This document shows positions 190 to 20,304 of a stretch of DNA of 64,000 nt, piece by piece; position 1 is the first letter of the stretch; each line of letters begins with the position of its first letter. Source of the stretch: Candidatus Nomurabacteria bacterium RIFCSPLOWO2_01_FULL_39_18 (GTDB lineage Bacteria; Patescibacteriota; Minisyncoccia; Phycocordibacterales; UBA9973). The translations under genes were made by a program, and so were the position numbers. The DNA is taken from assembly GCA_001787005.1 (NCBI GenBank), contig MFUV01000010.1, forward strand, positions 73,955 through 137,954, written 5' to 3'. The notes under the pieces were generated by a model. The model had not been told where the DNA came from, did no database searches, and saw nothing but the letters and a program-made list of their open reading frames with translations.

Positions 190-254
190 TTTGCCTTAAA
201 GTTCACCTCACCCCTTCGCCCCTCTCCTTGTCAAGGAGAGGGGTTGGGGAGAGG
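190..254. repeat. GC-rich imperfect hairpin (core cccctctccttg-tca-aggagagggg) immediately 3' of the minus-strand Cys-rich gene; no U-tract
   Basis: An 11-bp perfect inverted repeat with longer imperfect outer pairing. It is GC-rich in an AT-rich intergenic context. No T-run follows on either strand, so it is not a canonical intrinsic terminator. Confidence 0.4.
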
Positions 255-2056: not shown

Positions 2057-3751
2057 TCAATACACCTCCGCTTGGTAACATTTTTCGCAATACACTATCT
2101 CAGGTTTGTCTGCAGACCAAGAAGTTTTTATGTCTTTGCCACACTTGGCGCATTTGCGATCGTGGATTTCAATAGGATTTAGAAGTTTCGTGCGCGCACG
2201 ATCACGACAAAGTGGACAGTTGTGCGGAATGGGAAGATTGAAACGTCGATAGAAATCAATTTCCATTTTAATTAGCCGATAATTTTTACCGCACTTCTCG
2301 CATTTTAAGATTTCATTGACTATATCATCTTTCACATCTCTTATGTGTTTAGGTATTCTAATCGTTGCATCTTGATAATCTTTGGGTTCAACATCACGCC
2401 AGGCAAAACCTTCTTTTATCGCTTTTCCTTTCCCTAAAGGAAACCATTCCATACTTGTTGATTCATTGTAAGCCCAAGGGGAGATTTCTGAGGGCATCAT
2501 TTCGCCGTATTTATGAATTCTCCCAATTTTATCAATATAAGGAATCTCCATCATTTGTTTACGCAATTTTTCTGTGATCTTTAAATATTCTTCCTTTGAA
2601 TATCTTTTATTTAAAATACAGTACTCCCCTTTTTTAATGCCCACACAGCCAAACATATTATTGGACGAGTGACATCCAAAACAAAATTCGAGATTGCTAG
2701 CGTTGTAGTTCCAAACACTAAATTTTATATTAGACACTTGCAATCCAACCCAGCATGACTCATATATTAATTCTCCTCGCTCACCGAACTCGGTGTAATC
2801 ATAGCAATCAGCAATCGGTCCAGCTTTTAAAAACTGACAGTACCGACAGTCTTTCGCTTTGCGCACCATGTATGAATCGTGGACATTTTTAGAATTGTAA
2901 ACGTACTCCCCCGTTGTATTAACACTGTTTCTATCGTTGAATTGTTTGCGTGGTTGTGTGAGAAGAAATTCCATCGTAGATTTGCGAAATTTCTCCAGAC
3001 TTTCAACAGACCCAAAATCGTATTTTTTAAAAATTTTTTGAAATTCTTCTTTAGAATATGGTTCGTTGAAAATATGGTATTTCTTTTTTGTAAGATTGGC
3101 ACAGCCAACACAATCAGAACATCCTACACAACTACGGCAAAACCACATATTCATAGAACCGACGACATCTTCACAGAAAAAAGTTTGATAGCTGGAGTGG
3201 GTAATAACATTGCCATAGCCCATTTGATCATGGCGTGTCCAAGAACAGTCAATGGAGTCTTTAATGTCAGCAACTTCATTTAAATAAGCACAGTTTTCTG
3301 CATAATCAATTCTAAAACATAAATAACAATCTTTGCATTCTGCGGCAGCATTGCAATAATCACTCCGAACCATTGACGCATGTTCAGTATAGAGAGCAGG
3401 CAACGGTACGTCGCGCATAAGTTCACCAAACTGTTCTAGAAAAGATCGTGACCAATCAATTTCTCTGCCATGTTCCTTAGGATCCCACTTATCACTCCAC
3501 CAAATATCCTGACGATAGACTTTATAGGGTGAATCTTTGTGATGCGTCGTGATAACCTCCTCGCCAGTAAAATCGCATTTTCTTTTATATAAAATTTGAT
3601 AGCCCTGCCAAGAAAGCCTGCGCTTAAGTCGACATTCTGGACACCAAGTCGGTGGTGGCACTTTGATTTTCTCATAAAATCCAAAATCCGAAGCGTCTAT
3701 TGTAAAAGAATTTTTACAATTTTGACAAACCCTAGTTTCTTCCATATGCAT
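2057..3751 (-). CDS. Cysteine-rich paralog B (564 aa), tandem with paralog A
   Basis: Same architecture as paralog A: N-terminal CQNCKNSFTIDASDFGFYEKIKVPPPTWCPECRLKRR, internal CRSCVGCSDCVGC and YSKEEY modules, C-terminal IVYCEKCYQAEVY. Confidence 0.75.
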   Translation of the reverse strand: MHMEETRVCQNCKNSFTIDASDFGFYEKIKVPPPTWCPECRLKRRLSWQGYQILYKRKCDFTGEEVITTHHKDSPYKVYRQDIWWSDKWDPKEHGREIDWSRSFLEQFGELMRDVPLPALYTEHASMVRSDYCNAAAECKDCYLCFRIDYAENCAYLNEVADIKDSIDCSWTRHDQMGYGNVITHSSYQTFFCEDVVGSMNMWFCRSCVGCSDCVGCANLTKKKYHIFNEPYSKEEFQKIFKKYDFGSVESLEKFRKSTMEFLLTQPRKQFNDRNSVNTTGEYVYNSKNVHDSYMVRKAKDCRYCQFLKAGPIADCYDYTEFGERGELIYESCWVGLQVSNIKFSVWNYNASNLEFCFGCHSSNNMFGCVGIKKGEYCILNKRYSKEEYLKITEKLRKQMMEIPYIDKIGRIHKYGEMMPSEISPWAYNESTSMEWFPLGKGKAIKEGFAWRDVEPKDYQDATIRIPKHIRDVKDDIVNEILKCEKCGKNYRLIKMEIDFYRRFNLPIPHNCPLCRDRARTKLLNPIEIHDRKCAKCGKDIKTSWSADKPEIVYCEKCYQAEVY

Positions 3752-3797
3752 TTATATTATCACTAATCAGAGCGGAGTCCAGCACCAAGCTCCGGCT

Positions 3798-4691
3798 TTG
3801 GTGCTGCGGATCTGGCTCATTTTTTTGATTAAAATACATTGGTGTGCTATTGTTTTCAGGATGAATCCCCCAGAAATTACAATGAATAAAGACAATTCTT
3901 TACAATCCATTCCTCGCATAATTTTCTTTCTTTTGATGATTACATTGGTTGTTTATTCCTCGTCTTTAAGCATAAGATACAGACGAGAAGAACAAATCAA
4001 AAAAATTGAATCTGAAAAAAAAATCTATTTGACTGGAAAATTTGAGCCGAGCGAGCGAGAAGATTTTGTTTTGATTTCACCGGAAAATGCTTTCGGTGCG
4101 AACGATATGTATTTAAGGAAAGAAGCTTACGGAACATTTATTTTGATGCGCGAAGCCGCCAAAGAAGATGGAATTGATTTAAAGATAGCTTCAGCTACTA
4201 GGAATTTTGATTATCAAAAAAATATCTGGGATGAAAAATGGGCTGAGCTTGAAGTTGTTGATGGAAAAAATATAGATCAAGAAATTCCCGACGGATTAAG
4301 GCGATTTAAAAAAATATTAGAATTCAGTTCGGCTCCTGGCACATCCAGACACCATTGGGGCAGTGATATTGATATAAATAGAGTCAATCCTCTTTATGCT
4401 GGCAGCGCTAGAGATGAAATAGAAAGAGAAAAAATATATGCCTGGCTTGTTAAAAATGCCGCTCAATTTGGATTTTGCCAAACCTACACTCTCAAAAATG
4501 AAGCTAGAAAAACTGGGTACAAAGAAGAAAGGTGGCATTGGTCTTACCTGCCGCTCTCCAAAGCGCTGACGCAAGAATACAAAATTTTAGTAAAAAATGA
4601 AGATATCAAAGGATTTTCGGGCGACGAATTCGTTTCCACTTATGATCTCGTCAACAACTATGTGCTAGCCATCAACCCCGATTGTATCTAG
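3798..4691 (+). CDS. Peptidase M15 (VanY/D-Ala-D-Ala carboxypeptidase-like) with N-terminal TM segment
   Basis: SRHHWGSDIDIN matches the M15 S-x-H-x-x-G-x-A/D-x-D zinc-ligand motif, and the C-terminal EERWHWSY resembles the EPWHxRY motif. The true start is probably the Met at about 3882 (MNKDNSLQ...). Confidence 0.6.
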   Translation: MVLRIWLIFLIKIHWCAIVFRMNPPEITMNKDNSLQSIPRIIFFLLMITLVVYSSSLSIRYRREEQIKKIESEKKIYLTGKFEPSEREDFVLISPENAFGANDMYLRKEAYGTFILMREAAKEDGIDLKIASATRNFDYQKNIWDEKWAELEVVDGKNIDQEIPDGLRRFKKILEFSSAPGTSRHHWGSDIDINRVNPLYAGSARDEIEREKIYAWLVKNAAQFGFCQTYTLKNEARKTGYKEERWHWSYLPLSKALTQEYKILVKNEDIKGFSGDEFVSTYDLVNNYVLAINPDCI

Positions 4692-5213
4692 ATTCTCTGC
4701 TGCAATGTTCATAGAGTTATTGACTTCCCCATAATCTGGCAATTCTTCTACTGATTTTATGCCCATGAAAGATAGTGCTTCAAAACTTGGTTTGTAAATA
4801 TATCGTCTGCTGTCTTTTGCATCCGTAGATTTCTCTATAAGCCCGCGTACCGACAAAGCCCGCAAGGTGAAACTTGAATTTACTCCCCTGATATAATCAA
4901 TCTCTGCCCTACTCACCCCATTTTTATAAAGTATGATAGATAGTGTCTCTAGACTTGCTTTCGAAAGATCCTTGTTTAGTTCTTCCTTCTGTAAATCTTC
5001 AATAAGTTTGGAAAGTTCTGGCGCAGTTCCCAGAGAAATGTCATTTTCCTTTTCGAGCAGGACTATCCCCCGCCCCGCCAGATTTTCTTTCAGTTTTTCT
5101 ATACCTTCATTTATTTCACTTATTCCAACTCTCAAAACATCTCCGAGTTTTTTTCGCGATATTGGTTCTCCTTTCCAAAAAAGCACTGCCTCGATTTTTT
5201 TTTCCAAATCCAT
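4665..5213 (-). CDS. scpB: Segregation and condensation protein B
   Basis: N-terminal IEAVLFWKGEPISRKKL matches the ScpB winged-helix signature (IEALLF..GEP.S). Size is 182 aa. It lies directly downstream of scpA. Confidence 0.7.
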   Translation of the reverse strand: MDLEKKIEAVLFWKGEPISRKKLGDVLRVGISEINEGIEKLKENLAGRGIVLLEKENDISLGTAPELSKLIEDLQKEELNKDLSKASLETLSIILYKNGVSRAEIDYIRGVNSSFTLRALSVRGLIEKSTDAKDSRRYIYKPSFEALSFMGIKSVEELPDYGEVNNSMNIAAENLDTIGVDG

Positions 5214-5221
5214 AATTTTAA

Positions 5222-5974
5222 TTACTGTTTTGTTATGACAATATCTTCGAAGTGATTATTTTGCACCGCGTCCAGAATTCCATTTCTTACTAATTCCAGC
5301 ATTGCTAAAAATCCCACTATCACCGTCACCTTCTCTTCCCGCGTAGATACCTTGCCCGCAAATTCGGAAAAGTTCATCTTGAGAGCAGTTTGTATCCTTT
5401 GCGAAAGTCTATTAATCATTTCTTCTATGCTTATAACCTTTCTCACTTCCGCTTCCGGCAAAATTATTTTTTGGGGCATTCCTCCCAGAACCTCGCGCGC
5501 GAAAGTCATCATTGATTCTCTGGTAATCTGATTATCCGGCAAAAATACAAGAACTTGATTTTTCTGTTCCTGTGGCGCAAAAATTATTTTTTTTCCAAAA
5601 TTACTTTTTATATGTAGAGAAAGTTTCGTAAAAAGTTCATATAAACGCAATTGTTCCTCTAGGCTACGTATATCGCCTTCTTCTTCCGAAGTAAGATTTA
5701 AATTAGGAAGCAATGATTTTGATTTGATCAGAATAAGAGTTGATGCAACCAAAATAAAATTTGAAATTTCCTGTGGGGACAAACCTGCCTGCGCCCCGCC
5801 TGCGCGGGCAGGAGACAGGCCACCTAGTTTGTTCATGTACTCTAGGTAATCTTCCGTTACGGTAGCTAATGAAACATCATTAATAAAAAGTTTCCTTTTT
5901 TCTATGAGATCCAAAAGTAGCCCAAAGGGGCCCTCAAAGCCTGCAGTCTTTATTGTATAGGTATCTCTTTCCAC
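5222..5974 (-). CDS. scpA: Segregation and condensation protein A (kleisin) carrying a 12-aa GC-rich insertion
   Basis: FEGPFGLLLDLIEKRKLFINDVSLATVTEDYL is the canonical ScpA N-terminus. An insertion, LSPARAGGAQAG, is encoded by the 36-nt element at 5784..5819. Confidence 0.8.
   Translation of the reverse strand: MERDTYTIKTAGFEGPFGLLLDLIEKRKLFINDVSLATVTEDYLEYMNKLGGLSPARAGGAQAGLSPQEISNFILVASTLILIKSKSLLPNLNLTSEEEGDIRSLEEQLRLYELFTKLSLHIKSNFGKKIIFAPQEQKNQVLVFLPDNQITRESMMTFAREVLGGMPQKIILPEAEVRKVISIEEMINRLSQRIQTALKMNFSEFAGKVSTREEKVTVIVGFLAMLELVRNGILDAVQNNHFEDIVITKQ
5784..5819. repeat. 36-nt GC-rich palindromic element (cctgcctgcgccccgcctgcgcgggcaggagacagg), copy 1, in-frame in scpA
   Basis: Identical 36-mer also at 21456..21491 inside lepA. 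Both encode LSPARAGGAQAG in the host-gene frame. Contains the hairpin cctgc-gcgg-gcagg. Confidence 0.85.
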
Positions 5975-6019
5975 CTTTATATATTAGCATTTTTTGTAAA
6001 AAAAGATATACTGAAACCC

Positions 6020-8506
6020 ATGAAACCACAAAGCGTCCGCCTGTCGAAAAATGTCATTCCAGAGAGATACAATATAGAGCTTAAGCCTGATTTAAAGAAC
6101 TTTTCTTTCGAGGGTATTGAGACGGTAACTGTTTTAGTAAAAAAGCCGACCAAAATTCTCACCCTGCATTCCAAAGAAATAGAAATTGTCACAGCTGAAG
6201 TCTCCGGAACTTTTGCCAAAATTTCCTACAGCCAAAAATCTGAAACGGCAACTTTTGTTTTTCCTAAAAATATTTCTGCTAGCAAGACAAAGCTCACTAT
6301 CGTTTTCAAGGGAATCCTCAACGACAAAATGCGAGGATTTTACAAAAGCAGCTACCAAGTGGATGGCAAGGAGCGCCACATCGCCACCACCCAGTTCGAA
6401 GCCACCGATGCGCGCCGAGCTTTCCCTTGCTTCGATGAACCCGCCCACAAGGCTGTTTTCCATGTTCGGCTCATTGTACCCAAGGACATGAAGGCAATTT
6501 CAAATACTCTGCCTGTTTCGGTGACCGAACATGAAGCTGGTTTTGAAATTATAAAATTCGCCCCTACGCCAAAAATGTCTACTTACCTCCTCGCATTTAT
6601 AGTAGGTGATTTCGAGTACATAGAAAAAAAGTCCTCTCGTGGCGTCATCGTCCGCGTACACACTACTCCCGGGAAAAAACACCAGGCAAAGTTCGCTCTC
6701 GACGTAACAGTAAAAGTTTTAGAATTTTATGAAAAATATTTTGATATTCCATACCCCCTCAATACACTAGACATGATTGCTATTCCTGATTTTTCATCTC
6801 TCGCCATGGAAAACTGGGGAGCGATAACTTTCCGTGAGGTCGGACTTTTGGTGGATGAAAATCACACCTCGACTGCGTCAAAGGAATTAGTAGCGGAAGT
6901 AATTGCCCACGAACTTGCCCATCAATGGTTTGGCAATTTAGTAACGATGAAATGGTGGACACACTTGTGGTTGAACGAAGGCTTTGCTTCATATATTCCC
7001 TACTTGGTCATAGAAAAATTATTTCCAAAATGGAATATCTGGGAAAGGTTTACCACGCAAACACTAGGGATAGCATTAAAACTTGACGCGCTCCAAAATA
7101 CGCATCCTATTGAAATCGAAGTCCACCACCCGAATGAAATTGGAGAAATTTTCGACGCAGTTTCGTATTCTAAAGGAGCCTCCATCATCCGCATGCTGGC
7201 AGATTATTTGGGTGAAAAAGATTTTAGAGACGGTTTGCGATATTATTTAAAAAAGCACAGCTATAAAAACACCGAAACGATTCATCTCTGGCAAGCTTTT
7301 GAAAAGGTATCTAAAAAACCCGTCGCTAAAATGATGCATAACTGGACTTCTAAACCAGGCTATCCTGTGGTTCAGGCAAAGATGGTTAAAGGAAAAATTA
7401 ATTTCTCTCAAAGTAGATTTTTTGCCAACCCAATATCAGCGAAAAAAAAGAAAGATAAAACAAAATGGGAAATTCCAATAACTTTTAAAAAAAATAAAGT
7501 TAATTTTGGAGAAACCGGATTTTTTCGAACAGCTTACTCAAAAGAATTATTGGAAAAGCTTCGTAAACCTATACAAAATATGGCACTAGGCGCTAGTGAT
7601 AGACTTGGCGTCATACGAGATCTTTTTGCTCTTTCAGAGGCGGGAATAATCCCAACCACAGATGCACTGGAATTTTTATCAAGCTACAAGAGAGAAAATA
7701 ATTACACAGTATGGCTCGAGATTGCCGCAGGACTTGCCCAACTTGAGCAGATTTTAGCTAAAACTAAAAGTAGAGAAAATGTGAAAAGAATTGTCCTTAA
7801 TTTATTCTCCCCCTTAGCTAAAAGCCTAGGCTGGAATAAGAAAAAGAAGGAATCACACACCGATACTCTTCTTCGTTCTCTGGCAATTTCTCGCGCCGGA
7901 CGATCTGGTAACAAAGAAATAATAACTGAGGCTAGAAAAAAATTTATTGCAAAAAAAAGGGGTAAACATATATCCCCCGACATCCGTAGCGCAATATATG
8001 CCATCGTTGCCACTCATGGCAGTATGAAAGAATACCGAGTCCTTGTGGCGAGGTATAAAGAAGAAACACTCCATGAAGAAAAAAACAGGATAGGCAATGC
8101 GCTAGGAGACTTCGCTAGTCCGAAAATATTAAAAATGGCATGTGAATTTGCAATTTCTAAAAATGTCCGCCCCCAGGACACCGTTGGAATAATTTCCGGA
8201 GTTGGGATGAACCCTCTCGGTCGAGATATCTGGTGGAATTTTGTGAAGAAAAATTGGAAAATGTTGGTCTCCCGCTATGGCGACGGCGGACACACGCTCT
8301 CCAGACTTATCAAGGCTATCAACAGTAGTGCCGAAGATCGTCATCTAAACATGTTCAAGAAATTCTTCAAAACGCACGACGCCCCCGGAGCCAAACGCTC
8401 CGTAGAGCAAGTCATCGAGCGCCTCGAAGGCAACATCGCTTGGCTGAAAAGAGATGGGAAAAAGATAGAAAATTTTCTAAAACTCGCAGAGTCTGAAGTT
8501 CGATAA
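6020..8506 (+). CDS. pepN: Aminopeptidase N (M1 family)
   Basis: GAMEN-type motif SLAMENWG. HEXXH-(18)-E zinc site HELAHQWFGNLVTMKWWTHLWLNEGFASY. Size is 828 aa. Confidence 0.9.
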   Translation: MKPQSVRLSKNVIPERYNIELKPDLKNFSFEGIETVTVLVKKPTKILTLHSKEIEIVTAEVSGTFAKISYSQKSETATFVFPKNISASKTKLTIVFKGILNDKMRGFYKSSYQVDGKERHIATTQFEATDARRAFPCFDEPAHKAVFHVRLIVPKDMKAISNTLPVSVTEHEAGFEIIKFAPTPKMSTYLLAFIVGDFEYIEKKSSRGVIVRVHTTPGKKHQAKFALDVTVKVLEFYEKYFDIPYPLNTLDMIAIPDFSSLAMENWGAITFREVGLLVDENHTSTASKELVAEVIAHELAHQWFGNLVTMKWWTHLWLNEGFASYIPYLVIEKLFPKWNIWERFTTQTLGIALKLDALQNTHPIEIEVHHPNEIGEIFDAVSYSKGASIIRMLADYLGEKDFRDGLRYYLKKHSYKNTETIHLWQAFEKVSKKPVAKMMHNWTSKPGYPVVQAKMVKGKINFSQSRFFANPISAKKKKDKTKWEIPITFKKNKVNFGETGFFRTAYSKELLEKLRKPIQNMALGASDRLGVIRDLFALSEAGIIPTTDALEFLSSYKRENNYTVWLEIAAGLAQLEQILAKTKSRENVKRIVLNLFSPLAKSLGWNKKKKESHTDTLLRSLAISRAGRSGNKEIITEARKKFIAKKRGKHISPDIRSAIYAIVATHGSMKEYRVLVARYKEETLHEEKNRIGNALGDFASPKILKMACEFAISKNVRPQDTVGIISGVGMNPLGRDIWWNFVKKNWKMLVSRYGDGGHTLSRLIKAINSSAEDRHLNMFKKFFKTHDAPGAKRSVEQVIERLEGNIAWLKRDGKKIENFLKLAESEVR

Positions 8507-10045: not shown

Positions 10046-11269
10046 ATGCAAAACCCATTTCAAAACGCAATGGCACAGCTCGACAAAGTCGCCAAAATCA
10101 AAGATTTTGGCGATGAGTTTATCGCGTGCCTCCGACAGCCCGACCGAGATATTAGAATTACAATACCGGTCAAAATGGATGACGGTTCTATGAAAGTTTT
10201 TGAAGGATACCGAGTGGAATATAACAATACTCTGGGTCCCTATAAGGGCGGAATTAGATACCATCCAAACACGGAAATAAACGAGGTGAAAGCATTAGGT
10301 TTCTGGATGATGCTCAAATGCGCCGTAGCTGGAATCCCCATGGGCGGAGGCAAGGGCGGTGTAACTGTCGAGCCAAAAGATTTGTCCAAAAAAGAATCAG
10401 AAAGACTTTCTCGCGGATGGATACAAAAACTTTCTGATGTCTTGGGACCATACAAAGATGTCCCTGCGCCGGATGTAAATACCACGCCCGAGATAATGGA
10501 ATGGATGGCGGACGAATACGGAAAAATAACTGGCGATAAAACCGGAGCAGTAATAACGGGCAAGCCATTGGATAAAGGTGGCTCCGAAGGGCGAAATATA
10601 TCCACAGCACAGGGCGGATTTTATGTCTTTGAGACACTTCGTAGAGAGCTTGGATTGCCAGAGAAATGCAAAGTAGTAATTCAGGGATTTGGAAATGTGG
10701 GAAATAACGCCGCAGATATTTGGAGCAAGGCAGGACATGTAGTAATAGCGGTTTCAGATTCCAAAGGAGGAATTTATAAAGCAGACGGGATTGATATAAA
10801 AAAGCTCGCTGAGCATAAAAAAAATACTGGTTCACTTTCTGGCTTTGAAGGAAGCTCAAATATTACCAATCAAGAATTACTGGAGATAGAGTGTGATTTA
10901 TTAATTCCTGCTGCTTTTGAAAATGTCGTCACCGAAGCCAATGCAGGAAAAATTAAGGCAAAGATCGTCCTAGAGCTCGCCAATGGACCCACAACTCCAG
11001 AAGCGGATGAAATTTTGTTTAAAAAAAACATTCCCGTAATTCCAGATATCTTGGCAAATTCTGGAGGCGTTGTAGTTTCCTATTTTGAATGGGATCAAAA
11101 TTTGAAACAGGAGCACTGGAGTGAAAAAGAAGTCTTCGAAAAATTACGTCCGATGCTTGAAGATGCTTCAAAAAAAATATTAGAAAAGGCAAGAGAGGCA
11201 AACACCTCTCTCCGCATGGGCGCCTTCATCTTGGCACTTGAGAGAATAAAAGAAAAAATGCGCGGTTAG
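10046..11269 (+). CDS. gdhA: Glutamate dehydrogenase
   Basis: Catalytic lysine motif GIPMGGGKGGVTVEP. Rossmann motif GFGNVGNNAA. Size is 407 aa. Confidence 0.9.
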   Translation: MQNPFQNAMAQLDKVAKIKDFGDEFIACLRQPDRDIRITIPVKMDDGSMKVFEGYRVEYNNTLGPYKGGIRYHPNTEINEVKALGFWMMLKCAVAGIPMGGGKGGVTVEPKDLSKKESERLSRGWIQKLSDVLGPYKDVPAPDVNTTPEIMEWMADEYGKITGDKTGAVITGKPLDKGGSEGRNISTAQGGFYVFETLRRELGLPEKCKVVIQGFGNVGNNAADIWSKAGHVVIAVSDSKGGIYKADGIDIKKLAEHKKNTGSLSGFEGSSNITNQELLEIECDLLIPAAFENVVTEANAGKIKAKIVLELANGPTTPEADEILFKKNIPVIPDILANSGGVVVSYFEWDQNLKQEHWSEKEVFEKLRPMLEDASKKILEKAREANTSLRMGAFILALERIKEKMRG

Positions 11270-11331
11270 CTCAGTGGTAGAGCGACCCCTTGACGTGGGG
11301 TAGGCCGGGGGTTCAATCCCCTCACCGCGCA
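11260..11331 (+). tRNA. tRNA-Val (anticodon GAC)
   Basis: Cloverleaf: acceptor gcgcggt/accgcgc; D-arm gctc-agtggta-gagc; anticodon stem acccc/ggggt with loop ttGACgt; T-arm ggggg-ttcaatc-ccctc. Its first 10 nt overlap the gdhA stop region. Confidence 0.85.
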
Positions 11332-11332
11332 C

Positions 11333-12631
11333 ATGAGAATCTTGAGCATCGAGACATCTTGCGATGATACGGCAATAAGCATTATGGAGGCAAAGGGGGG
11401 TGTTACGAACGCCTCCTTCGGCGTATTGGCAAACACTTCAAATTCACAAATAAAAGTCCATATCCCGTACGGTGGAGTTTATCCAGTGCTGGCAAAACGG
11501 GAACATACTAAAAATCTGCCAATCCTTCTAGAACAAGCATTAAAGGAAGCAAAACTAGAGAAAGAAAATAGTCCTGTGGATGTTATTGCTGTCACTTACG
11601 GTCCGGGGCTGGAGATGTGTTTGTGGGAGGGAATAATTTTCGCACAAAAATTAGCGAAAAAGTGGGAAGTGCCGTTAATCCCCGTAAACCATATGGAGGG
11701 GCATGTGTTGTCAGTATTCGGGAAAGATAAAGGGAAGTTTAAAATCCCTAAAATAAAATTTCCCATGCTTTCCTTGCTCGTTTCCGGCAGACATACGCAG
11801 TTAGTACTGTCTAAAAAACCCGCCCGACCGGACGCTAGCCCGACAAGGTCATTCTGGCGGGGTCGTTCGGGCGGGTGGTTGCAATACGAAATTATCGGTA
11901 CAACCTTAGATGACGCAGTTGGTGAAGCTTTCGACAAAGTTGCCAGAATGCTCGATCTTCCCTACCCGGGCGGACCGGAGATTTCTAAACTGGCAGAAGA
12001 AGCCAGAATCTTGCGCAAGGGAAGCATTGCGCAAGCTGGCGACAGGAAAAGAGGGGCTTTGCTCTTACAGAGACTTGGGAGCGCGTCGTCTGCTTTCCAG
12101 CAGACCCCCGCACGAGGAATTTTTCAGCAGAAAAATATCCGTGCTCTGGAAGAGCAAAGCCCCTCTTTAAAGCTTCCTCGCCCAATGCTTCACAGTAAAA
12201 ATTTTGATTTCTCTTTCGCAGGATTGAAAACCGCTGTGCTTTACCTCATACATGATCTGAAAAAAGAACATTCCAACATTTTGCAAAATAACCAAATGAA
12301 AATGCAGATTGCTTTAGAGTTTGAGAATGCGGCGATAGAGTGCCTTACACACAAAACAAAAAAGGCTATAGAAAAATATAAAATCAAAACACTCATCGTG
12401 GCTGGCGGGGTGGCCGCGAATAAACATTTAAGAAATGAGATGCAAAAAATCACCACCCCAGACCCCTCCTCAAAAAGGAGGGGAGGAATTAAACTCCTCT
12501 TCCCCACCAGAGAACTCTCGGGGGACAATTCTCTGATGATCGGCATCGCCGGATACCTAAATTATCTAAAAAATAAGAAGAAAGTTCCCAAACTAGAGAG
12601 CATCAAAGCGACTGGTAATTTAAGGCTCTAA
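11333..12631 (+). CDS. tsaD: tRNA N6-threonylcarbamoyladenosine synthase TsaD (Kae1/Gcp family) with two GC-rich insertions
   Basis: MRILSIETSCDDTAISI, HMEGHVL, GRHTQLVL...YEIIGTTLDDAVGEAFDKVARML, FSFAGLKTAV. Insertions lie at about 11816..11881 and 12010..12170 relative to the TsaD consensus. Confidence 0.85.
   Translation: MRILSIETSCDDTAISIMEAKGGVTNASFGVLANTSNSQIKVHIPYGGVYPVLAKREHTKNLPILLEQALKEAKLEKENSPVDVIAVTYGPGLEMCLWEGIIFAQKLAKKWEVPLIPVNHMEGHVLSVFGKDKGKFKIPKIKFPMLSLLVSGRHTQLVLSKKPARPDASPTRSFWRGRSGGWLQYEIIGTTLDDAVGEAFDKVARMLDLPYPGGPEISKLAEEARILRKGSIAQAGDRKRGALLLQRLGSASSAFQQTPARGIFQQKNIRALEEQSPSLKLPRPMLHSKNFDFSFAGLKTAVLYLIHDLKKEHSNILQNNQMKMQIALEFENAAIECLTHKTKKAIEKYKIKTLIVAGGVAANKHLRNEMQKITTPDPSSKRRGGIKLLFPTRELSGDNSLMIGIAGYLNYLKNKKKVPKLESIKATGNLRL
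11816..11881. repeat. GC-rich hairpin element in-frame in tsaD (cccgcccgac ... gtcgttcgggcggg)
   Basis: An imperfect inverted repeat encodes SKKPARPDASPTRSFWRGRSGGW between the conserved HTQLVL and YEIIGTT segments. It shares a cccgac-aaggtc core with the valS 3' hairpins. Confidence 0.7.
12010..12170. repeat. Composite palindromic element in-frame in tsaD: 25-bp arms aaagaggggctttgctcttacagag / ctctggaagagcaaagcccctcttt (1 mismatch) plus cttgcgcaag palindromes
   Basis: The arms at 12048..12072 and 12144..12168 are reverse complements. The interior has nested hairpins (ctgct-ttcc-agcag). Encodes about 55 extra residues before the FSFAGLKT motif. Confidence 0.7.
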
Positions 12632-12642
12632 TATGATATTAT

Positions 12643-14829
12643 TTGTCTATGGATAGTAGATTACTCAAACCCTATAACCCGAAAGAAACAGAAGAAAGAA
12701 TCTACAAGCTATGGGAAGATAGCGGTTTTTTTAACCCAGACAAGAATACTAATCCAGACGCCGAGCCTTTCACCCTAATAATGCCTCCCGTCAATGCAAA
12801 TGGTTCTCTACACGCGGGACATGGCCTGATACTGACCATCGAAGATGTAATGGTGCGCTACAAAAGGATGCGCGGATTCAAAACGCTCTGGCTTCCAGGA
12901 CTAGACCATGCCGGCTTTGAAACACAAGTCGTTTATGAAAAGAAGTTAGAAAAAGAAGGACGAAGCAGATTCGAGATAGAACCAAAACAACTTTATAAGG
13001 AAATTCTGGACTTTACTCTAGCCAACTCGACTAATATAAAATCTCAGATAAGAAAAATGGGAGCTTCGTGCGATTGGGGACGAGAAAAATTTACACTAGA
13101 CCCAGATGTGGTGAAAACTGTCCATCAAACATTCGAGAGAATGTATGACGATGATTTGATTTATCGAGGAAAACGAATCATCAGCTGGTGTTCCAAGCAT
13201 CAAACATCATTTTCCGATTTAGAAATAAAAGACGAAGAACGCACAGACGATTTTTATTATCTCAAATATGGACCTTTCACTATCGGCACAGCTAGGCCAG
13301 AAACTAAATTTGGTGATAAATATGTAGTTATGCACCCGGATGACGAACGTTATAAAGAATACAAAGAAGGCCAAAAAATAAATTTAGAATGGATAAATGG
13401 TCCCATAGAAGCCACTGTTGTAAAAGATGACTCCATAGATAAGGAATTCGGAACCGGAGTCATGACGATAACTCCCTGGCACGACACTCTAGACTTTGAG
13501 ATCGCAGAGCGACACAAGCTAGACAAAGAACAAGTCATCGACGAAAACGGAAAATTGCTACCCATCGCGGGAGAATTTGCCGGACAACATATCAAAAAAG
13601 CACGACCACTCATAATCGAAAAATTGCAAAAGAAGGGTTTGGTGGAAAAAATAGATACAAGCTACAAGCATGTCGTTCGTACTTGCTATAAATGCGGGAC
13701 AATTATTGAACCTCAAATCAAAAGTCAGTGGTTTGTGAAAATGAAACCTTTGGCCGAGAAAGCCTTGGAGAAAATTGAGAATGGAGAAATAGTTTATATT
13801 CCCGAACATTATAAAAAAATTACGGTTCATTGGTTAGGGAACATAATGGACTGGAATATCTCCCGGCAGATAGTCTGGGGGATCCCCATTCCCGCAAAGA
13901 TATGTAAAGAATGCAGTCACGGAATGGTAGATATAGGGGAGAAAATTACAAAGTGTAAAAAGTGTGATGGCGAAGTTGAAAAAGACAATGACACCTTTGA
14001 TACTTGGTTCTCGTCTGGACAGTGGCCGTTTGTAACACTTGGTTATCCAGATTCTCCTGATTTTAAAAAATTTTATCCCACGGACGTTATGGAAACTGGG
14101 GGCGACATTATATTCTTTTGGATTTCTCGTATGATTATGCTGGGCCTCTATGTGACCGGAAAAATTCCCTTCAAGACGGTATATTTAAATGGCATGGTTC
14201 TCGACGCTAAAAGCCAAAAAATGAGTAAAAGTAAAGGAAATGTTATCGATCCGCTTGTCCTGACAGAAAAATACGGCACCGATGCCTTCAGAATGGGAAT
14301 GGTTGTGGGCAACACGCCAGGGACCTCGCTCGCACTTGCCGAGGAGCGGATTAGAGGATATAAAAATTTCGCAAATAAAATCTGGAATGCTGCACGCTTC
14401 GTGCTCGACAATACGAAAGATTTTAAAATACCGACAACGCCGCCCTATGACGAAGAAGATAAGAAATCAGACGAAGAACTGAAAAATTTAATAACCGAAA
14501 TCACGACAGAAATAGATGAATACAAGTTCTACATTGTCGCAGAAAAACTTTACCACTACTTTTGGCACACTTTTGCTGATATTATTATTGAGAGGTCAAA
14601 AAAGAAAATTGCCGAGAACAAAAATGCAGATGGAGCAAAGGCGCTTTTGTATACACACCTCGAAACATTGCTTGGGGCTTTGCACCCCTTCATGCCATTT
14701 ATTACTGAAGAAATTTGGCAAATTATAAAATCCCGACGCAAGGTCGGGACCCCGACTGAAACGTCGGGGTTACTTATGGTAGAACAATGGCCCTTTGACT
14801 CTGCTCAGGGCAAGCCAAAATCGATATGA
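12643..14829 (+). CDS. valS: Valyl-tRNA synthetase (short form, lacks C-terminal coiled-coil)
   Basis: HIGH region PPVNANGSLHAGHGL. KMSKS motif KMSKSKGN. Anticodon-binding region LHPFMPFITEEIWQ. Size is 728 aa. The last 25 aa are encoded by tandem GC hairpins. Confidence 0.9.
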   Translation: MSMDSRLLKPYNPKETEERIYKLWEDSGFFNPDKNTNPDAEPFTLIMPPVNANGSLHAGHGLILTIEDVMVRYKRMRGFKTLWLPGLDHAGFETQVVYEKKLEKEGRSRFEIEPKQLYKEILDFTLANSTNIKSQIRKMGASCDWGREKFTLDPDVVKTVHQTFERMYDDDLIYRGKRIISWCSKHQTSFSDLEIKDEERTDDFYYLKYGPFTIGTARPETKFGDKYVVMHPDDERYKEYKEGQKINLEWINGPIEATVVKDDSIDKEFGTGVMTITPWHDTLDFEIAERHKLDKEQVIDENGKLLPIAGEFAGQHIKKARPLIIEKLQKKGLVEKIDTSYKHVVRTCYKCGTIIEPQIKSQWFVKMKPLAEKALEKIENGEIVYIPEHYKKITVHWLGNIMDWNISRQIVWGIPIPAKICKECSHGMVDIGEKITKCKKCDGEVEKDNDTFDTWFSSGQWPFVTLGYPDSPDFKKFYPTDVMETGGDIIFFWISRMIMLGLYVTGKIPFKTVYLNGMVLDAKSQKMSKSKGNVIDPLVLTEKYGTDAFRMGMVVGNTPGTSLALAEERIRGYKNFANKIWNAARFVLDNTKDFKIPTTPPYDEEDKKSDEELKNLITEITTEIDEYKFYIVAEKLYHYFWHTFADIIIERSKKKIAENKNADGAKALLYTHLETLLGALHPFMPFITEEIWQIIKSRRKVGTPTETSGLLMVEQWPFDSAQGKPKSI
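14735..14790. repeat. Tandem GC-rich hairpins (cccgac-gcaag-gtcggg; accccgac-tgaaac-gtcggggt) forming the valS 3' coding end
   Basis: Perfect short inverted repeats. They encode the SRRKVGTPTETSGLL tail in place of the usual ValS coiled-coil. Confidence 0.6.
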
Positions 14830-15515
14830 TGACCAGTGATCCAAAAATTTTGTTTCTAGCATTTGTTGGCGGAATCATCCCTGCCCTATTGTGGCTGTGG
14901 TTTTGGCTGAAAGAAGACAAGCAGAAGCCCGAACCGAAGGGGCTACTTTCTGTGATTTTCATAATGGGCGTGATAGCTGTTATTTTCGTTCTGCCAATTC
15001 AAAAGTTTATCCAGGCTCATGTGGTCTCGCATGGATGGGAGCTAGTTTTATGGGCGACAGCAGAAGAAATAATGAAATATCTGGCTGTGATGATTGTACT
15101 TTATAAAACAAATTTTGCTGATGAGCCCGTAGACTGGCCAATATATATGATTACGGGGGCTTTGGGTTTCGCGGCGCTCGAGAATGCTCTATTTTTGATT
15201 AAACCGCTCTCTTTAGGCGCAACTGCGGTGGGTCTCTTAACGGGTCAATTAAGATTCCTCGGATCGACTCTTCTTCATACAGTTTCAAGCGCCATAGTGG
15301 GTATTGCGGTGGGAATCTCGCTCCACATGGGTGGATTTGCTAGAAAATGGCACTTTTTGGTAGGGCTTTTTCTGGCCAGCGCCTTGCATAGTATCTTTAA
15401 TTTCTTTATAATAAAGAACAATGGCAGTGACTTTCTAAAAGTGTTTGCTTTCTTGTGGGTCGTCACCATTATTGTCATGTTACTTTTCGAAAAAATAAGA
15501 AGAATGAATTACTAG
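14826..15515 (+). CDS. PrsW-like intramembrane protease family membrane protein
   Basis: Multi-TM 229-aa protein with EExxK (ATAEEIMKYLAV) and conserved His segments, as in PrsW (PF13367). Tentative. Confidence 0.45.
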   Translation: MMTSDPKILFLAFVGGIIPALLWLWFWLKEDKQKPEPKGLLSVIFIMGVIAVIFVLPIQKFIQAHVVSHGWELVLWATAEEIMKYLAVMIVLYKTNFADEPVDWPIYMITGALGFAALENALFLIKPLSLGATAVGLLTGQLRFLGSTLLHTVSSAIVGIAVGISLHMGGFARKWHFLVGLFLASALHSIFNFFIIKNNGSDFLKVFAFLWVVTIIVMLLFEKIRRMNY

Positions 15516-15532
15516 ATTAATTAACAAAAAAT

Positions 15533-16012
15533 ATGGAACCAAAAAAGAGGGGTTTTTTTGAAAGATTGGCTGGAAGCGTTAGAATGGAAGAAGAACCGGA
15601 AGAGGGAAAGAAAAAATTTACGGGAATGGGTAATGGAGAAAAAGGCAGTAGAAAAAATAATTGGATTGAGGAAGAAAGCGAAGATGCAGAACTGGCCGTC
15701 GATGTTTACCAGACCGAAGGAGACATCATTATACAAACAATGGTTGCTGGGGTGAAGCCGGAAGATTTAGAGCTATCGATTGCCAGAGACATCGTAACTA
15801 TTTCGGGCAAGCGCGAAGAATCTAGAAACGTAGATGAAGAAAATTATTTTGTCAAAGAGCTTTATTGGGGCAAATTTTCTCGCACCATCTCGCTTCCCCA
15901 AGAAATTGAACCGGAAGAAGTTGACGCAACAGAGCGCCACGGACTTGTTACCATCAAACTTCAGAAAGTGGATAAAGAAAAGAAAAACACCATAAAAGTC
16001 AGATCAATCTAG
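15533..16012 (+). CDS. Small heat-shock protein (Hsp20/alpha-crystallin)
   Basis: Alpha-crystallin domain LAVDVYQTEGDIIIQTMVAGVKPEDLELSI...GKFSRTISLP...VDATERHGLVTIKL. Confidence 0.8.
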   Translation: MEPKKRGFFERLAGSVRMEEEPEEGKKKFTGMGNGEKGSRKNNWIEEESEDAELAVDVYQTEGDIIIQTMVAGVKPEDLELSIARDIVTISGKREESRNVDEENYFVKELYWGKFSRTISLPQEIEPEEVDATERHGLVTIKLQKVDKEKKNTIKVRSI

Positions 16013-17259
16013 GAGATCAAATCTGCTTTTTCTTTTATTTCAACTTTTCTCACAAAATAAAAGCCGATGGCCACAAATACTGCCATGGTTATCATGGCAA
16101 TACGGTATCGTACTACTCCAAAATTAATAAAAATATAAGTTATCATCCCCCAAAATAGTGGTCCTATCAGAGTTGATGTTCGCTCTGCTAATGTGTAAAA
16201 ACTAAAACCGAAATTTAGCTTCTCTTTCGGAGTAAGCGCTGTCATAGCAGTTCGACTCACAGTCCATATAGCTCCAAAAAGAAAACCGACCAAAATACAC
16301 AAAACAGTGAATAACTTGAAGTTTGTGTTTAAACCAAGTACGGGTATGAATACGACCCAAACACCAATCACAATCAAGAGAGATTTCTTGAGCCCAATTT
16401 TATCTATAATAAAACCGGAAGAAACAGCTCCGATGATGGAAGTAAGCAAAGCTCCGCCCAGAAGAATTGTTTTTAATTTGTCAGAGACGCCAAAGACATT
16501 CTGGAGGTAAATGGGAAAATTATTAGAAACGGTAAGAATAGCGTCATTGAAAAAGAAATAGGCTAAAAGAAACATTTTCATGTTTCTATCAGAAACTAGG
16601 CTTTTGAATTGCTGCCATAGGCTTCTGTATTCTTCTTTAAAATTAATTTTGTAATCTGGATTTTGTTGCATTTGTAATTTGAAAAACAAAAGCATCGGCA
16701 ACGCAAGAATAAAAAATAAAATAGTTGCGGGCAAGAAAGTCTGTGCGCGACCAGTTTCGCCTATGAGATAAATAGCCCCGCCAGCAAGGGGTAAGGTAAT
16801 TAATAGCCCAGCGATTTGCCCCAGGTAGTTGGCTCCGATACCGATACCGGACACTCTCCCCCATTTTTCTCTAGGGGCAATATGATGCAAGAATGCATTA
16901 TAAAAAACAAAGGAAAATTGGTAAAAATAATTCGCAAGAAGAAAGAATAATGCCGCTAAAAATATTTGATGAGAAAAAAACAAGGCTACCAGAGAAACAC
17001 CAAGAAAGAAGAGGAGTGAAAGCATAGTGATCTTATTGAAATAACTTTGTTGTCTTCCTGTCTTGTCGGCAATGCTTCCTAAAATAGGAGCTGTAAAAAG
17101 AAGCATGGCTGATCCAATTGTAAAAATCATGTTAAACCAAAAATCTGCTATCCCCTTGTCAATTACCAGCCATTGAGAAAAATATAAAAAGAAAACAATG
17201 AAGACCATCGAGTTCGCAAAATCATAGAGAGTCCAGAAAAAAATATTTTTCTTGTTCAT
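16009..17259 (-). CDS. MFS transporter
   Basis: About 12 predicted TM helices and a GxLaDrxGrkx-like loop (GSIADKTGRQQ). The ORF-track start at 17283 overlaps tRNA-Phe, so the start was moved to the Met at 17259 (MNKKNIFF). Confidence 0.7.
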   Translation of the reverse strand: MNKKNIFFWTLYDFANSMVFIVFFLYFSQWLVIDKGIADFWFNMIFTIGSAMLLFTAPILGSIADKTGRQQSYFNKITMLSLLFFLGVSLVALFFSHQIFLAALFFLLANYFYQFSFVFYNAFLHHIAPREKWGRVSGIGIGANYLGQIAGLLITLPLAGGAIYLIGETGRAQTFLPATILFFILALPMLLFFKLQMQQNPDYKINFKEEYRSLWQQFKSLVSDRNMKMFLLAYFFFNDAILTVSNNFPIYLQNVFGVSDKLKTILLGGALLTSIIGAVSSGFIIDKIGLKKSLLIVIGVWVVFIPVLGLNTNFKLFTVLCILVGFLFGAIWTVSRTAMTALTPKEKLNFGFSFYTLAERTSTLIGPLFWGMITYIFINFGVVRYRIAMITMAVFVAIGFYFVRKVEIKEKADLIS

Positions 17260-17262
17260 TTG

Positions 17263-17334
17263 TGCCTGGGGGGTGAATCGCACACCCGGCCACTTCCTCT
17301 TCAGGGAAATGCTCTACTACTGAGCTACCCAGGC
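17263..17334 (-). tRNA. tRNA-Phe (anticodon GAA)
   Basis: Minus-strand cloverleaf: gcctggg-ta-gctc-agtagta-gagc-a-tttcc-ctGAAga-ggaag-tggcc-gggtg-tgcgatt-caccc-cccaggc-a. Confidence 0.85.
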
Positions 17335-17354
17335 ATAATTGTTTTCAATAAAAA

Positions 17355-17600
17355 TTACTGACCGAACTGTTTTATATTATTTAACACATCACCTGCTCCG
17401 CTATATACGCCTATTAATTGCTCTATATACGGCTGGATAAAATAATAAGCGCCAAGAGCAGAGCCTATAATAAGGACCCAATACAATATGGTCATCATCC
17501 TCTGAAAGCGCATTGAGCGCCTCATGGAGTGCAGTATACTATTATTCTCCTTTGCCAGCGCTAGAGTCTCCTCTAAAAGCTTTTTGGATTCGGGATCCAT
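17355..17600 (-). CDS. Small membrane protein, unknown
   Basis: 81-aa ORF with one hydrophobic helix. No recognisable motif. Confidence 0.35.
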   Translation of the reverse strand: MDPESKKLLEETLALAKENNSILHSMRRSMRFQRMMTILYWVLIIGSALGAYYFIQPYIEQLIGVYSGAGDVLNNIKQFGQ

Positions 17601-17730
17601 CCCGTACGAAATTTCATTAAATTAATAAAATGACCAATCCCATATACGAAACTTTATTAGCAAGATTTCGTACGGGATCCATAGCTACAATTTAGCATAA
17701 TAATTAAAGAAATAAAAGGTTACAGGAAAC

Positions 17731-18567
17731 TTATTGAGTAAGAATTGAAGGATTGTTATATCTTGATATTCTGGCTCGTTTTACTTCTTCTTTTTTGTCT
17801 TTTAATTGATTCGTATCAGATGCCCTAACCAATTCACCCGCTAGCTGTTCTGCTTTAATTTTACTAGATTTATTTCTTCCTAGAATTGCGTAGCCCATAG
17901 CTATTGTAATTTTAAAAGAAAAAGGTTCGCCCGAAAAACTCTCGTCCTCATTTATCTTTACGCCTTTAACAATCAAATTGGTATTTACTTTATCTTGAAT
18001 TCTTGTAAAAATTTTTTTCAACTTTACATCATCTAAATTACCTCTAATCGACAATACCATCCGGAATTCATCGCCATGGGGATGAAATACTAGATCCCCT
18101 CCAAGTTCTTTTACTGCTTCCTGCAACCTTTGGGCGACAGCTTTGATTGCTTGATCGCCCACAGGATGACCATGCCTATCATTTATTACCTTAAAATCAT
18201 CTATGTCCGCAGCAATTGCCATGATGGAGTCTGGAGTAGACTCGCTCTTGGGATTCTGATTTAATTGCTTAATCAATGCAGGCAGTTTTCTTTCTAAACC
18301 AAGACGGTTGTAGCAACCAGTAAAGGTATCAATGCCTTGGTTCGTTTCTAGAGAAGAAATTATTCCTTCTTGCTTTCTCGCAAGCACAGTAATTAATTCA
18401 ATATATTGATCTTTTGTTATTGCTTCTCTCGCGAGAGCGCCACTTATCATATTCACCGTGCAAACACCTCTTGCCAACAAATCCTTTAAATCTTTAAGGG
18501 TCTTCGGGTTCTCCATTATTGCTGTTTTTTCTGGAGTATATGGTGGCTTTCTTGGTATCCATTCCAT
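17731..18567 (-). CDS. GGDEF-domain protein (signature reads HGDEF)
   Basis: GCYNRLGLERKL, IAADIDDFKVINDRHGHPVGDQAI and HPHGDEFRMVL are GGDEF-domain landmarks. The first Gly of GG(D/E)EF is replaced by His. Confidence 0.7.
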   Translation of the reverse strand: MEWIPRKPPYTPEKTAIMENPKTLKDLKDLLARGVCTVNMISGALAREAITKDQYIELITVLARKQEGIISSLETNQGIDTFTGCYNRLGLERKLPALIKQLNQNPKSESTPDSIMAIAADIDDFKVINDRHGHPVGDQAIKAVAQRLQEAVKELGGDLVFHPHGDEFRMVLSIRGNLDDVKLKKIFTRIQDKVNTNLIVKGVKINEDESFSGEPFSFKITIAMGYAILGRNKSSKIKAEQLAGELVRASDTNQLKDKKEEVKRARISRYNNPSILTQ

Positions 18568-18616
18568 CTAAAAATCATAACACAAGCCACCATGAAATCC
18601 AATTTTGTAAAATTTG

Positions 18617-18691
18617 TGGTGCCCCCGGCAGGAATTGAACCTACATCTATCCCTTAGGACGGGACTGTTCTATCCGTTGAACTACGAGGAC
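18617..18691 (-). tRNA. tRNA-Arg (anticodon CCT) with encoded CCA
   Basis: Minus strand: gtcctcg-ta-gttc-aacggata-gaac-a-gtccc-gtCCTaa-gggat-agat-gtagg-ttcaatt-cctgc-cgggggc-a-cca. The acceptor stem has two G-U pairs. The anticodon assignment is moderately confident. Confidence 0.65.
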
Positions 18692-18817
18692 ATATATATT
18701 GTTTGTTCCAATCAAATTTAGCATATTTATAATAAACTTGAAATGCTATGTTGATTTTCTTTTTCAAATTTATTAAAGTTTTTTGCGAAAGAGGTGCGCA
18801 ACGTTTCCCTTTTTTAT

Positions 18818-19063: not shown

Positions 19064-19126
19064 TTGATTTTCTGAAATTATCTTCTAATCCTTCTATTGT
19101 ATCATACTTGTCAAGTAAATAAAAAA

Positions 19127-19612: not shown

Positions 19613-19635
19613 TCATAAAGGTATATAATACGGTT

Positions 19636-20301: not shown

Positions 20302-20304
20302 TAA

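Follow-up and report, generated by a model that had tools for sequence, protein, structure and literature searches.

A 36-nt GC-rich hairpin inserted in-frame in scpA and lepA of a Nomurabacteria genome, a probable selfish mini-palindrome

The DNA examined here is a 64,000-nt stretch (the window) of the genome of the Patescibacteria member Candidatus Nomurabacteria bacterium RIFCSPLOWO2_01_FULL_39_18, corresponding to positions 73,955 to 137,954 of contig MFUV01000010.1. It possesses two identical copies of the 36-nt sequence CCTGCCTGCGCCCCGCCTGCGCGGGCAGGAGACAGG (the 36-mer), one within scpA, coding for segregation and condensation protein A, and one within lepA, coding for elongation factor 4 (EF4), with coordinates given in Table 1. 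Exact matching, together with the identification of both host genes by Pfam, bears out a preliminary description of this DNA which had reported the two verbatim copies. No further copy with up to three mismatches was identified in the window, nor was the 36-mer found in 100 dinucleotide-preserving shuffles of it; copy counts for the source genome cover the 64-kb window only. Both copies read on the forward strand and lie inside open reading frames (ORFs) of the reverse strand. As had also been described, they share one orientation relative to the gene and one codon phase (xxC/CTG...GG/N, that is xxC CTG TCT ... GCA GGn), and both are translated as LSPARAGGAQAG; this phase is common to all four coding copies of the 36-mer. 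The ORF of LepA contains the domains GTP_EFTU, EFG_III, EFG_C and LepA_C and has EF4 matches in the PDB, while its likely start, MDLKH, is supported by the consensus start of its orthologues.

The 36-mer has a G+C content of 81% against 39.8% for the window, of which it is the most GC-rich 30-nt stretch. As single-stranded DNA of the forward strand it is predicted to fold, at -12.9 kcal/mol, into a stem of 11 bp (with one G·T pair) that closes a loop of 7 nt and leaves a 3′ tail of 7 nt, AGACAGG; the gene strand folds at -11.0 kcal/mol. Its portrayal as a GC-rich hairpin in an AT-rich genome holds. The ends of the element are CCTGCC... and ...AGACAGG. Its length is exactly 12 codons and none of its six frames contains a stop codon, a property found in 55% of composition-matched shuffles and in 3.3% of the window's own 36-mers. 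The peptide of the phase in use is small, free of Cys and rich in Gly and Ala. A 42-column profile of the 12-aa peptide (with random flanks) was compared to a large protein database and returned 29 word-sharing candidates, none of them with an E-value of 10 or below. A known RNA family was rejected, there being no Rfam match at gathering thresholds across the window, both copies included.

Judged by alignment with close orthologues, the 36-mer in both scpA and lepA is a true insertion, and the segment is foreign to the ScpA and LepA consensus, as had been proposed. For LepA the comparison set comprised 120 orthologues (80-100% identical, with sources named Nomurabacteria, Parcubacteria, Paceibacterota or Minisyncoccia), among which the 12-aa peptide was found in the same-strain protein P0001 only. 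The next relatives, P0002 and P0003 (90-91% identity overall, approximately 94.5% over conserved columns), are insert-free, and the gene of P0002 (contig L045; 91% overall, 94.7% over conserved columns) shows the empty site, with ...GGC GAT/AAT CGC... in place of GGC GA[36-mer]C AAT CGT in the window. For ScpA, likewise compared to 120 orthologues, the closest is P0122 (contig L047), which is 82% identical overall and 85% identical over conserved columns and is also insert-free; it has GGC/GGT TTG TCT CCT where the window has GGT GG[36-mer]T TTG TCC CCA. The insertion boundaries are therefore clean in both genes. The residues LSP are repeated on either side of the insert in ScpA only.

Both inserts are predicted to lie in surface loops, in line with what had been expected of them. 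In AlphaFold models of low confidence, used for the placement of secondary structure only and alongside PDB alignment, the ScpA insert falls between helices 36-49 and 67-88 (mean pLDDT, a per-residue model confidence score, 44.5), and the LepA insert, at residues 453-464 counted from MDLKH, between strands 446-449 and 465-473 of domain V (mean pLDDT 52.4). Alignment with Thermus EF4 (5imq) places the latter in the short loop ...NYLP-GAQ-KRV.... In both proteins the loop concerned is variable in length across the aligned orthologues.

A short sequence of this type, recurring as it does in data sets of different projects, might be suspected of being an assembly or library artefact such as a synthetic oligonucleotide or a chimeric join. 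Two ENA contigs bear on this. Contig L001 (ERZ4903137) corresponds to window positions 11153-25308 with 2 mismatches in 14,156 nt (99.986% identity), both of them in a tRNA gene, and includes the lepA copy; contig L046 (ERZ27254756) corresponds to positions 3480-6079 with 1 mismatch in 2,600 nt and includes the scpA copy. The two are, by this near-identity, other assemblies of the window strain, and they contain the inserts, as a check on further assemblies would ask. The lone mismatch in L046 falls within the scpA copy, at window position 5802, giving LSPAREGGAQAG, and alters the closing pair of the stem, so that a point variant of the element exists. Both are MEGAHIT k141 contigs, and an assembly artefact is very unlikely because the assembly word of 141 exceeds the element in length. 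The gene sequence also continues uninterrupted and in-frame on both sides without target bases being lost or gained, and shorter natural relatives occur at the same sites in many ENA, NCBI, JGI and Logan assemblies. The end CTGTCTC of the element presumably has 7 nt in common with the Tn5 mosaic end, with no resemblance past these; adapter contamination was set aside since the likeness is just 7 nt, and we regard the artefact explanation as barely credible.

Further copies are present in other genomes, as the preliminary description had invited one to look for. One genome for each of 185,579 GTDB species was scanned with the pattern CCTGCCTGC-N(4-24)-GGCAGGAGACAGG; the collection scans demanded exact stems, so diverged copies are missed by them. 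Of eight matches, the exact 36-mer was found in one, contig L036 (JALYJR010000015.1, 'bacterium CAM bin9'), where it is situated in an 89-bp spacer between the divergent genes rpsT and ruvA. The other seven appear to be chance matches, six being from contigs with a G+C content of 57-70% and one, L037, from a non-Patescibacteria contig with unrelated internal sequence; one match of the scan lies in the Woesearchaeota contig L035. No second copy was seen in the scan of the L036 genome, itself a GTDB species representative, which is therefore not that of the window strain, and the window species is either not represented in GTDB or is represented by a genome without the element. In a scan of JGI metagenomes in which the loop was left free, two contigs were retrieved, L040 and L041, with the 36-mer identical in both, the loop included. 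In L040 it lies in the C-terminal tail of a UPF0182 protein of 906 residues, at 840-851 and past the end of the Pfam domain (16-774), and reads LSPARAGGAQAG; three JGI and ENA contigs have this exact protein on record, counted from its second Met (902 aa). In L041 it is inverted inside a Ddl-like ORF, where it reads LPAPRLRGQETG.

These loci have nothing in common with those of the window beyond 36-39 nt, and similarity between the flanks of the five 36-mer contexts is limited to at most 1-3 nt. No target-site duplication was found at any of the five contexts, nor was a common target motif found in the flanks of the five copies in either orientation (n=5). Several known kinds of short sequence were considered and dismissed. 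A CRISPR repeat was rejected, there being no locus with more than one copy; a DNA-uptake sequence was set aside for its far too low density; and off-target spacer integration by Cas1-Cas2 was set aside as no repeat duplication is seen and the sequence at each site is identical. No copy of the 36-mer was found in IMG/VR, and the matches in GC-rich phages and plasmids were partial and due to chance only, so that a phage or plasmid source was also rejected.

By its ends, the 36-mer belongs to a wider family of hairpins of 18-36 nt with the form CCTGYCTG...CAGGCAGG. The preliminary description was correct on the 36-mer itself and had missed this family, its recurrence at the same gene positions and two inserts in tsaD discussed below. 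Short inserts occupy the lepA position (GA^Y AAT) in 13 other orthologues, examples being LSAQAG, LSGRQAG, LPGRQAG, LPDGKAG and PEGKRASYGAG. The insert DNA was compared where it could be fetched, namely in contigs L044 (CCTGTCTGCGCAGGCAGG), L002 (CCTGTCTGGCCGGCAGGCAGG), L042 (CCTGCCTGGCCGGCAGGCAGG) and L043 (CCCCGAAGGAAAGCGAGCTTCCTACGGGGCAGG, a different 33-nt hairpin), and occupies the identical nucleotide position in all four. At the scpA position (GG^T), contig L048 has the insert CCTGCCTGCGCAGGCAGG, and six more ScpA orthologues have LPAQAG, LSAQAG, PSAQAG, MSAQAG, LSTHTG or a GRQA-type peptide in the same loop. The shorter family relatives at these sites, of 18 and 21 nt, have the same ends. 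One possible reading of the 36-mer is that of an 18-mer, CCTGTCT^GCGCAGGCAGG, with a second and slightly diverged unit, CCTGCCCGCGCAGGCGGG, presumably nested at the point marked. Orthologues with inserts are scattered through both sets of 120, and the nearest neighbours of each are insert-free, with up to 94-96% identity over conserved columns in the case of LepA; this argues that the peptide is not ancestral.

It is difficult to see such a distribution arising from non-mobile, fast-evolving LepA and ScpA loops, in which replication slippage at a hairpin would lengthen the protein and similarity would be due to convergence or to vertical inheritance with frequent loss. Both sites are indeed length-variable loops in many orthologues, and inserts at one site share their ends. 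However, an identical 36-nt string occurs in two unrelated genes and in three further contexts (one intergenic, one inverted), the inserts are of 81% G+C in genes of 40% G+C, and the insert-free neighbours at 94-96% would need many precise losses. Slippage has thus been largely refuted by the extra copies already and is given a very slight probability.

The 33-nt lepA inserts of L043 and L049 add to this, as they differ at 1 of 33 nt (97% identity) in lepA genes which are 74% identical, a conservation far above that of the host gene which slippage does not predict. Because of this difference, the lepA inserts are either of more recent date than the lineages that host them or subject to much stronger constraint. 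The flanks next to the 33-mer return at once to 73-87% identity, and no co-conversion tract was found around it. Taken together, these comparisons suggest that the same lepA and scpA sites have gained inserts repeatedly, recently and in a site-selective manner.

The main rival to a mobile element is the spread of the hairpins by homologous or microhomology recombination or by gene conversion, for example after DNA uptake, with elements at hot spots being swapped for the current variant; the anchors would be the shared ends (CCTGYCTG / CAGGCAGG) or similar flanks. Such exchange would account for different family members being found at the same two gene positions across lineages, and there is a resemblance between the empty scpA site of L047 (GGT TTG TCT CCT) and the element's 5′ end (GGC CTG TCT CCT). 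There is also a precedent in yeast mitochondria, where the element GC42 is exchanged via recombination at conserved flanks (PMC4478555), and low-GC phage contigs with an in-frame 18-mer could serve as vectors. Against this, identity is 73-87% right beside the 97%-identical 33-mer, without the tract that conversion would leave, and the five contexts of the 36-mer lack flank similarity beyond 1-3 nt. Moreover, the sites are empty in the closest relatives of the window strain, with no older element to convert, and the target in L048 is unlike the end of the element. We consider recombination unlikely as the means of spread, while giving it more weight than the other rivals.

Among the 240 orthologues the reading L[S/P]...QAG only was seen, with no instance of the Cys- and Arg-rich peptides that the remaining two phases would give. 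The use of a single reading and phase fits selection on the peptide and is by itself no proof of target specificity. The G-purine preceding the inserts is seen relative to the gene and not to the element, and the preference may simply mirror the Gly and Asp codons of loops.

Short palindromes of this family were also seen in viral contigs. As markers the 18- and 21-mers were rejected, being frequent and uninformative in GC-rich viral contigs, and only those of L013 (4017-4034), L019 (893-910, the same as L022) and L052 (1376-1396; IMG/VR) look meaningful. These are low-GC contigs (38-42%) with an in-frame 18- or 21-nt palindrome read as LSAQAG, LPAQAG or LPAGQAG; L013 and L019 encode a terminase, with L013 also encoding a portal protein. 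These phages could be vectors of hairpin elements. The 21-mer CCTGCCTGGCCGGCAGGCAGG was also seen in the GC-rich IMG/VR contigs L051, L054 and L055, within a long ORF and with an Asp codon before it and an Asn codon after it (GA^C AAC, D-LPGRQAG-N). The lepA site has these same flanking residues, which may be coincidental or may hint at a preference for GA^CAA as target.

The 36-mer might alternatively be a domesticated functional module, acting in translational pausing at the boundary of a domain, as a protein-binding palindrome, in mRNA stabilisation or as a Gly/Ala-rich linker. Its copies are perfectly identical across contexts, even at free loop positions, the 33-mer is conserved well above its host gene, and similar hairpins are found just 3′ of genes in terminator-like positions, all of which would suit a function. 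On the other hand, the closest orthologues work without the insert, and the element occurs in either orientation, in intergenic DNA and in unrelated host proteins, the UPF0182 copy being in a tail outside the conserved domain. In addition, the lone single-nucleotide polymorphism in 2.6 kb of the near-identical strain alters the closing pair of the stem. Domestication is accordingly held to be quite improbable.

With respect to enzymes that could move a hairpin, the window has two genes for Y1 (HUH) transposases resembling the REP-associated tyrosine transposase (RAYT) kind, REP denoting repetitive extragenic palindromes; both are candidates for the class of a trans-acting enzyme only. The best NCBIfam match of the first is the REP-associated tyrosine transposase model, at 40 bits and thus below the 80-bit cut-off, and its sequence shows an HUH motif (NHFH) and YVHRNP. 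It is bracketed by its own GTGTTGAACAC-type hairpins (repeats 19134-19169, 19576-19611 and 20303-20352), and is syntenic with lepA in L001 and L002, with a weak and more divergent Y1_Tnp match there in L043. This kept position beside lepA suggests a resident gene that does not move. The second is bracketed by ACCAAGGGGAACCCTTGGT hairpins at 58230-58297 and 58939-58974 (repeat family D13). Hairpins of the GTGTTGAACAC type were also seen at 19805-19830, inside the first RAYT-like gene itself (VEHSVFN), and at 31362-31387, inside a gene for an S-adenosylmethionine-dependent methyltransferase (30630-31520; KCSTPSVQQ).

The gene tsaD has two further palindromic inserts, both of which are also present in contig L001. 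They are single-copy in the sequences compared, and no Rfam match with an E-value of 1 or below was found around them. The longer has 25-nt arms at 12048-12072 and 12144-12168, while the shorter is a further case of the same phenomenon in another sequence family. A second family of GC-rich hairpins, CCCCTCTCC-loop-GGAGAGGGG, is located at window positions 219-243, just 3′ of a gene, and in a spacer of L043 (8115-8139); outside ORFs these hairpins take terminator-like positions. In L042 and L043 the same hairpin is found in-frame in lepA, with peptides such as PLLSGEG and PLLSEEGV. Because the tsaD inserts and the CCCCTCTCC/GGAGAGGGG family also lie in ORFs, palindromic ORF inserts are a general trait of these genomes and no peculiarity of one 36-mer.

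Table 1. Features of the 64-kb window, with positions counted from its first nucleotide
Feature	Position	Strand	Remarks
Element copy 1	5784-5819	- (gene); + (36-mer)	Exact match; in-frame in scpA, residues 53-64, LSPARAGGAQAG
Copy 1, stem arms	5784-5794 and 5802-5812	+	
Copy 1, loop	5795-5801	+	
Copy 1, tail	5813-5819	+	AGACAGG
Host gene scpA	5222-5974	-	Segregation and condensation protein A, 250 aa; Pfam PF02616 SMC_ScpA, E 2.7e-16
Element copy 2	21456-21491	- (gene); + (36-mer)	Identical; in-frame in lepA, LSPARAGGAQAG; beta-hairpin loop, domain V
Host gene lepA	20972-22843	-	EF4; likely start MDLKH at 22843, longest ORF to 22858
RAYT-like Y1 (HUH) transposase gene	19636-20301	+	PF01797; candidate trans-acting class only
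Second RAYT-like Y1 (IS200-like) transposase gene	58304-58960	+	PF01797; candidate class only
tsaD	11333-12631	+	Two palindromic inserts
tsaD GC-rich hairpin	11819-11875	+	~57 nt, in-frame (19 aa), PARPDASPTRSFWRGRSGG; L002 orthologue without it
tsaD long palindrome	12046-12170	+	~121 nt, in-frame (40 aa), inverted repeat I12; L002 orthologue without it
Leucyl-tRNA synthetase gene	26472-29390	-	NUDIX hydrolase domain, residues 405-508
Large serine recombinase gene	32299-33954	-	
LOOT RNA	35908-36017	+	RF03000, 68 bits
Restriction/defence cluster	37989-42931	-	Four proteins (see text)
Paralogous ORFs of ~570 aa	255-2012, 2057-3751, 43057-44766	-	No significant Pfam family

A number of other features of the window are worth mentioning. 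In the leucyl-tRNA synthetase a NUDIX hydrolase domain is inserted where the editing part adjoins the catalytic one, an architecture that its L002 orthologue shares. The LOOT RNA is found in a gene-poor stretch near the large serine recombinase gene. The restriction/defence cluster codes for an Mrr-type endonuclease, a Z1-domain protein, an NgoFVII-like endonuclease and a C5 cytosine methyltransferase. Three paralogous ORFs, one of which has a sub-threshold match to a treble-clef zinc finger, explain the direct-repeat families D1, D2 and D7.

On balance, we read the 36-mer as a non-autonomous selfish mini-palindrome which is copied to new places by machinery encoded elsewhere, and assign this reading a probability of roughly 0.7. 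A trans-acting activity would copy the hairpin, probably through a single-stranded hairpin intermediate, and the likeliest class of enzyme would be an HUH/Y1 transposase of the RAYT kind. The single-stranded DNA chemistry of such enzymes fits because there is no target duplication and the hairpin has an asymmetric tail, and also because both orientations and spacers are used and RAYT-like genes with cognate hairpins are present. Insertion would be site-selective or homing-like, and selection would then filter the copies, with those in surface loops and in the benign reading phase surviving; the element could persist in essential genes because it is 12 codons long, stop-free, situated in surface loops and read in a benign phase. 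The 36-mer itself may have been born by the nesting of one 18-mer-like unit within another, and its spread between genomes would be horizontal.

A number of observations weigh against this reading. No transposition event, excision footprint or within-population presence/absence polymorphism was seen, and no link of any enzyme to the 36-mer was found. Neither RAYT-like gene is flanked by the 36-mer, both being bracketed by unrelated hairpins, and no HUH gene was found near the copies in L036, L040 and L041. The copies of the 36-mer have no conserved target motif and no REP-type tag (GTAG/CGTC). Copy number is low, at 2 in 64 kb, one GTDB representative among 185,579 species and two JGI contigs, and L040 and L041 may be of the same species as the window, with no overlapping genes to compare. 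Finally, recurrence at the same positions could reflect structural tolerance, or the replacement of elements through recombination at their shared ends.

Among known systems, the preliminary description had likened the element to Rickettsia palindromic elements (RPEs), selfish palindromes that persist inside ORFs. The insertion, the reading frame and the mobile-like spread support this comparison, while the length and sequence of RPEs do not, and transposition of the 36-mer would have to be deduced from its distribution. As with RPEs, the palindromes lie in-frame in unrelated and often essential genes and also in intergenic DNA of a small-genome bacterial host, adding a peptide at tolerated surface positions; translation of the insert is deduced from the intact reading frame. 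RPEs are approximately 100-150 bp in length, a range into which the longer tsaD palindrome falls, whereas the 36-mer, at 36 bp, is three- to fourfold shorter and its relatives measure 18-21 bp. The 36-mer also has no sequence relationship to RPEs (no match in Rfam), is present at 2 copies in 64 kb in contrast to the many copies of RPEs per genome, and recurs at the same positions in separate lineages, which is no described feature of RPEs. Its relation to RPEs is thus one of analogy and not of membership.

The GC clusters of yeast mitochondria, such as GC42, are palindromic and are exchanged horizontally between species by recombination (PMC4478555). They resemble the 36-mer and its relatives in being GC-rich palindromes, 30-50 nt long, within a genome richer in AT, in their sporadic occurrence among close relatives and rapid turnover, as constrained sequences that are more conserved than their surroundings and are exchanged horizontally, and, on the nested reading of the 36-mer, in the origin of new elements by the merger of smaller units. 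Some are in-frame in genes, as in the var1/rps3 case (PMC4478555). They differ, however, in being mostly intergenic, in their organellar rather than bacterial host and in a putative AG/TAG target duplication, none being present at the 36-mer.

With REP/RAYT systems the 36-mer shares an imperfect GC-rich palindrome of 20-40 nt with a short asymmetric tail, a target duplication is not expected from HUH chemistry, and the window has RAYT-like genes along with their cognate hairpins. However, REPs bear GTAG or CGTC tags (PMC3733652), which the 36-mer lacks, and are extragenic and high-copy, while the 36-mer has 2 copies in 64 kb, both intragenic and neither beside a RAYT-like gene. Bacterial transposable elements of the miniature inverted-repeat type (MITEs) inserted in-frame have been reviewed (PMC10969869); like the 36-mer they are non-autonomous and occasionally tolerated inside ORFs. 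They are unlike it in their terminal inverted repeats derived from insertion sequences, their target-site duplications and their usual length of 50-500 bp, none of which the 36-mer has, there being no duplicated flank in its five contexts. Elements of the IS200/IS605 type use a fixed tetra- or pentanucleotide target immediately 5′ of the insertion, and no common flank motif was found here (n=5). Bypass elements ('byp') and the T4 gene 60 type, which are untranslated inserts, differ again, the 36-mer being a multiple of three and stop-free, without a stop codon after a take-off codon and without matching take-off and landing codons. By comparison, then, the 36-mer behaves like RPEs and mitochondrial GC clusters, yet fails the defining features of every named family. 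It is unusual in being so small, in occupying the same nucleotide positions of conserved genes time after time and in its identity across genomes. The suggestion that such an element had not been described in Patescibacteria is supported by a full-text literature search, in which no paper was found tying Patescibacteria, the candidate phyla radiation (CPR) or Parcubacteria to REP, MITE, selfish or palindromic in-frame elements, and the 36-mer is apparently undescribed in this group.

The genomes of Patescibacteria are tiny and densely packed with genes, and mobile elements are believed to be few in them. Hairpins in lepA, scpA, tsaD and other essential genes would show selfish DNA hiding in protein loops and would account for some of the puzzling differences in length among the conserved proteins of these lineages. 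Such inserts disturb the alignments, phylogenies and domain models of the marker proteins on which work with these uncultivated groups draws, and could double as strain-level markers. With repeated gains at the same positions and inserts younger than their hosts, target choice and mechanism would become directly testable. More tentatively, and at odds clearly below even, Paceibacteria may host a hitherto unrecognised class of ultra-short (18-36 nt) hairpins that home to set positions in conserved genes, move between species, merge and integrate without target duplication, by way of a new kind of enzyme or of RAYT-like HUH proteins acting on intragenic targets. If true, these would be the smallest known site-selective mobile elements and, for the proteins encoded by these reduced genomes, a general source of variation in loop length.

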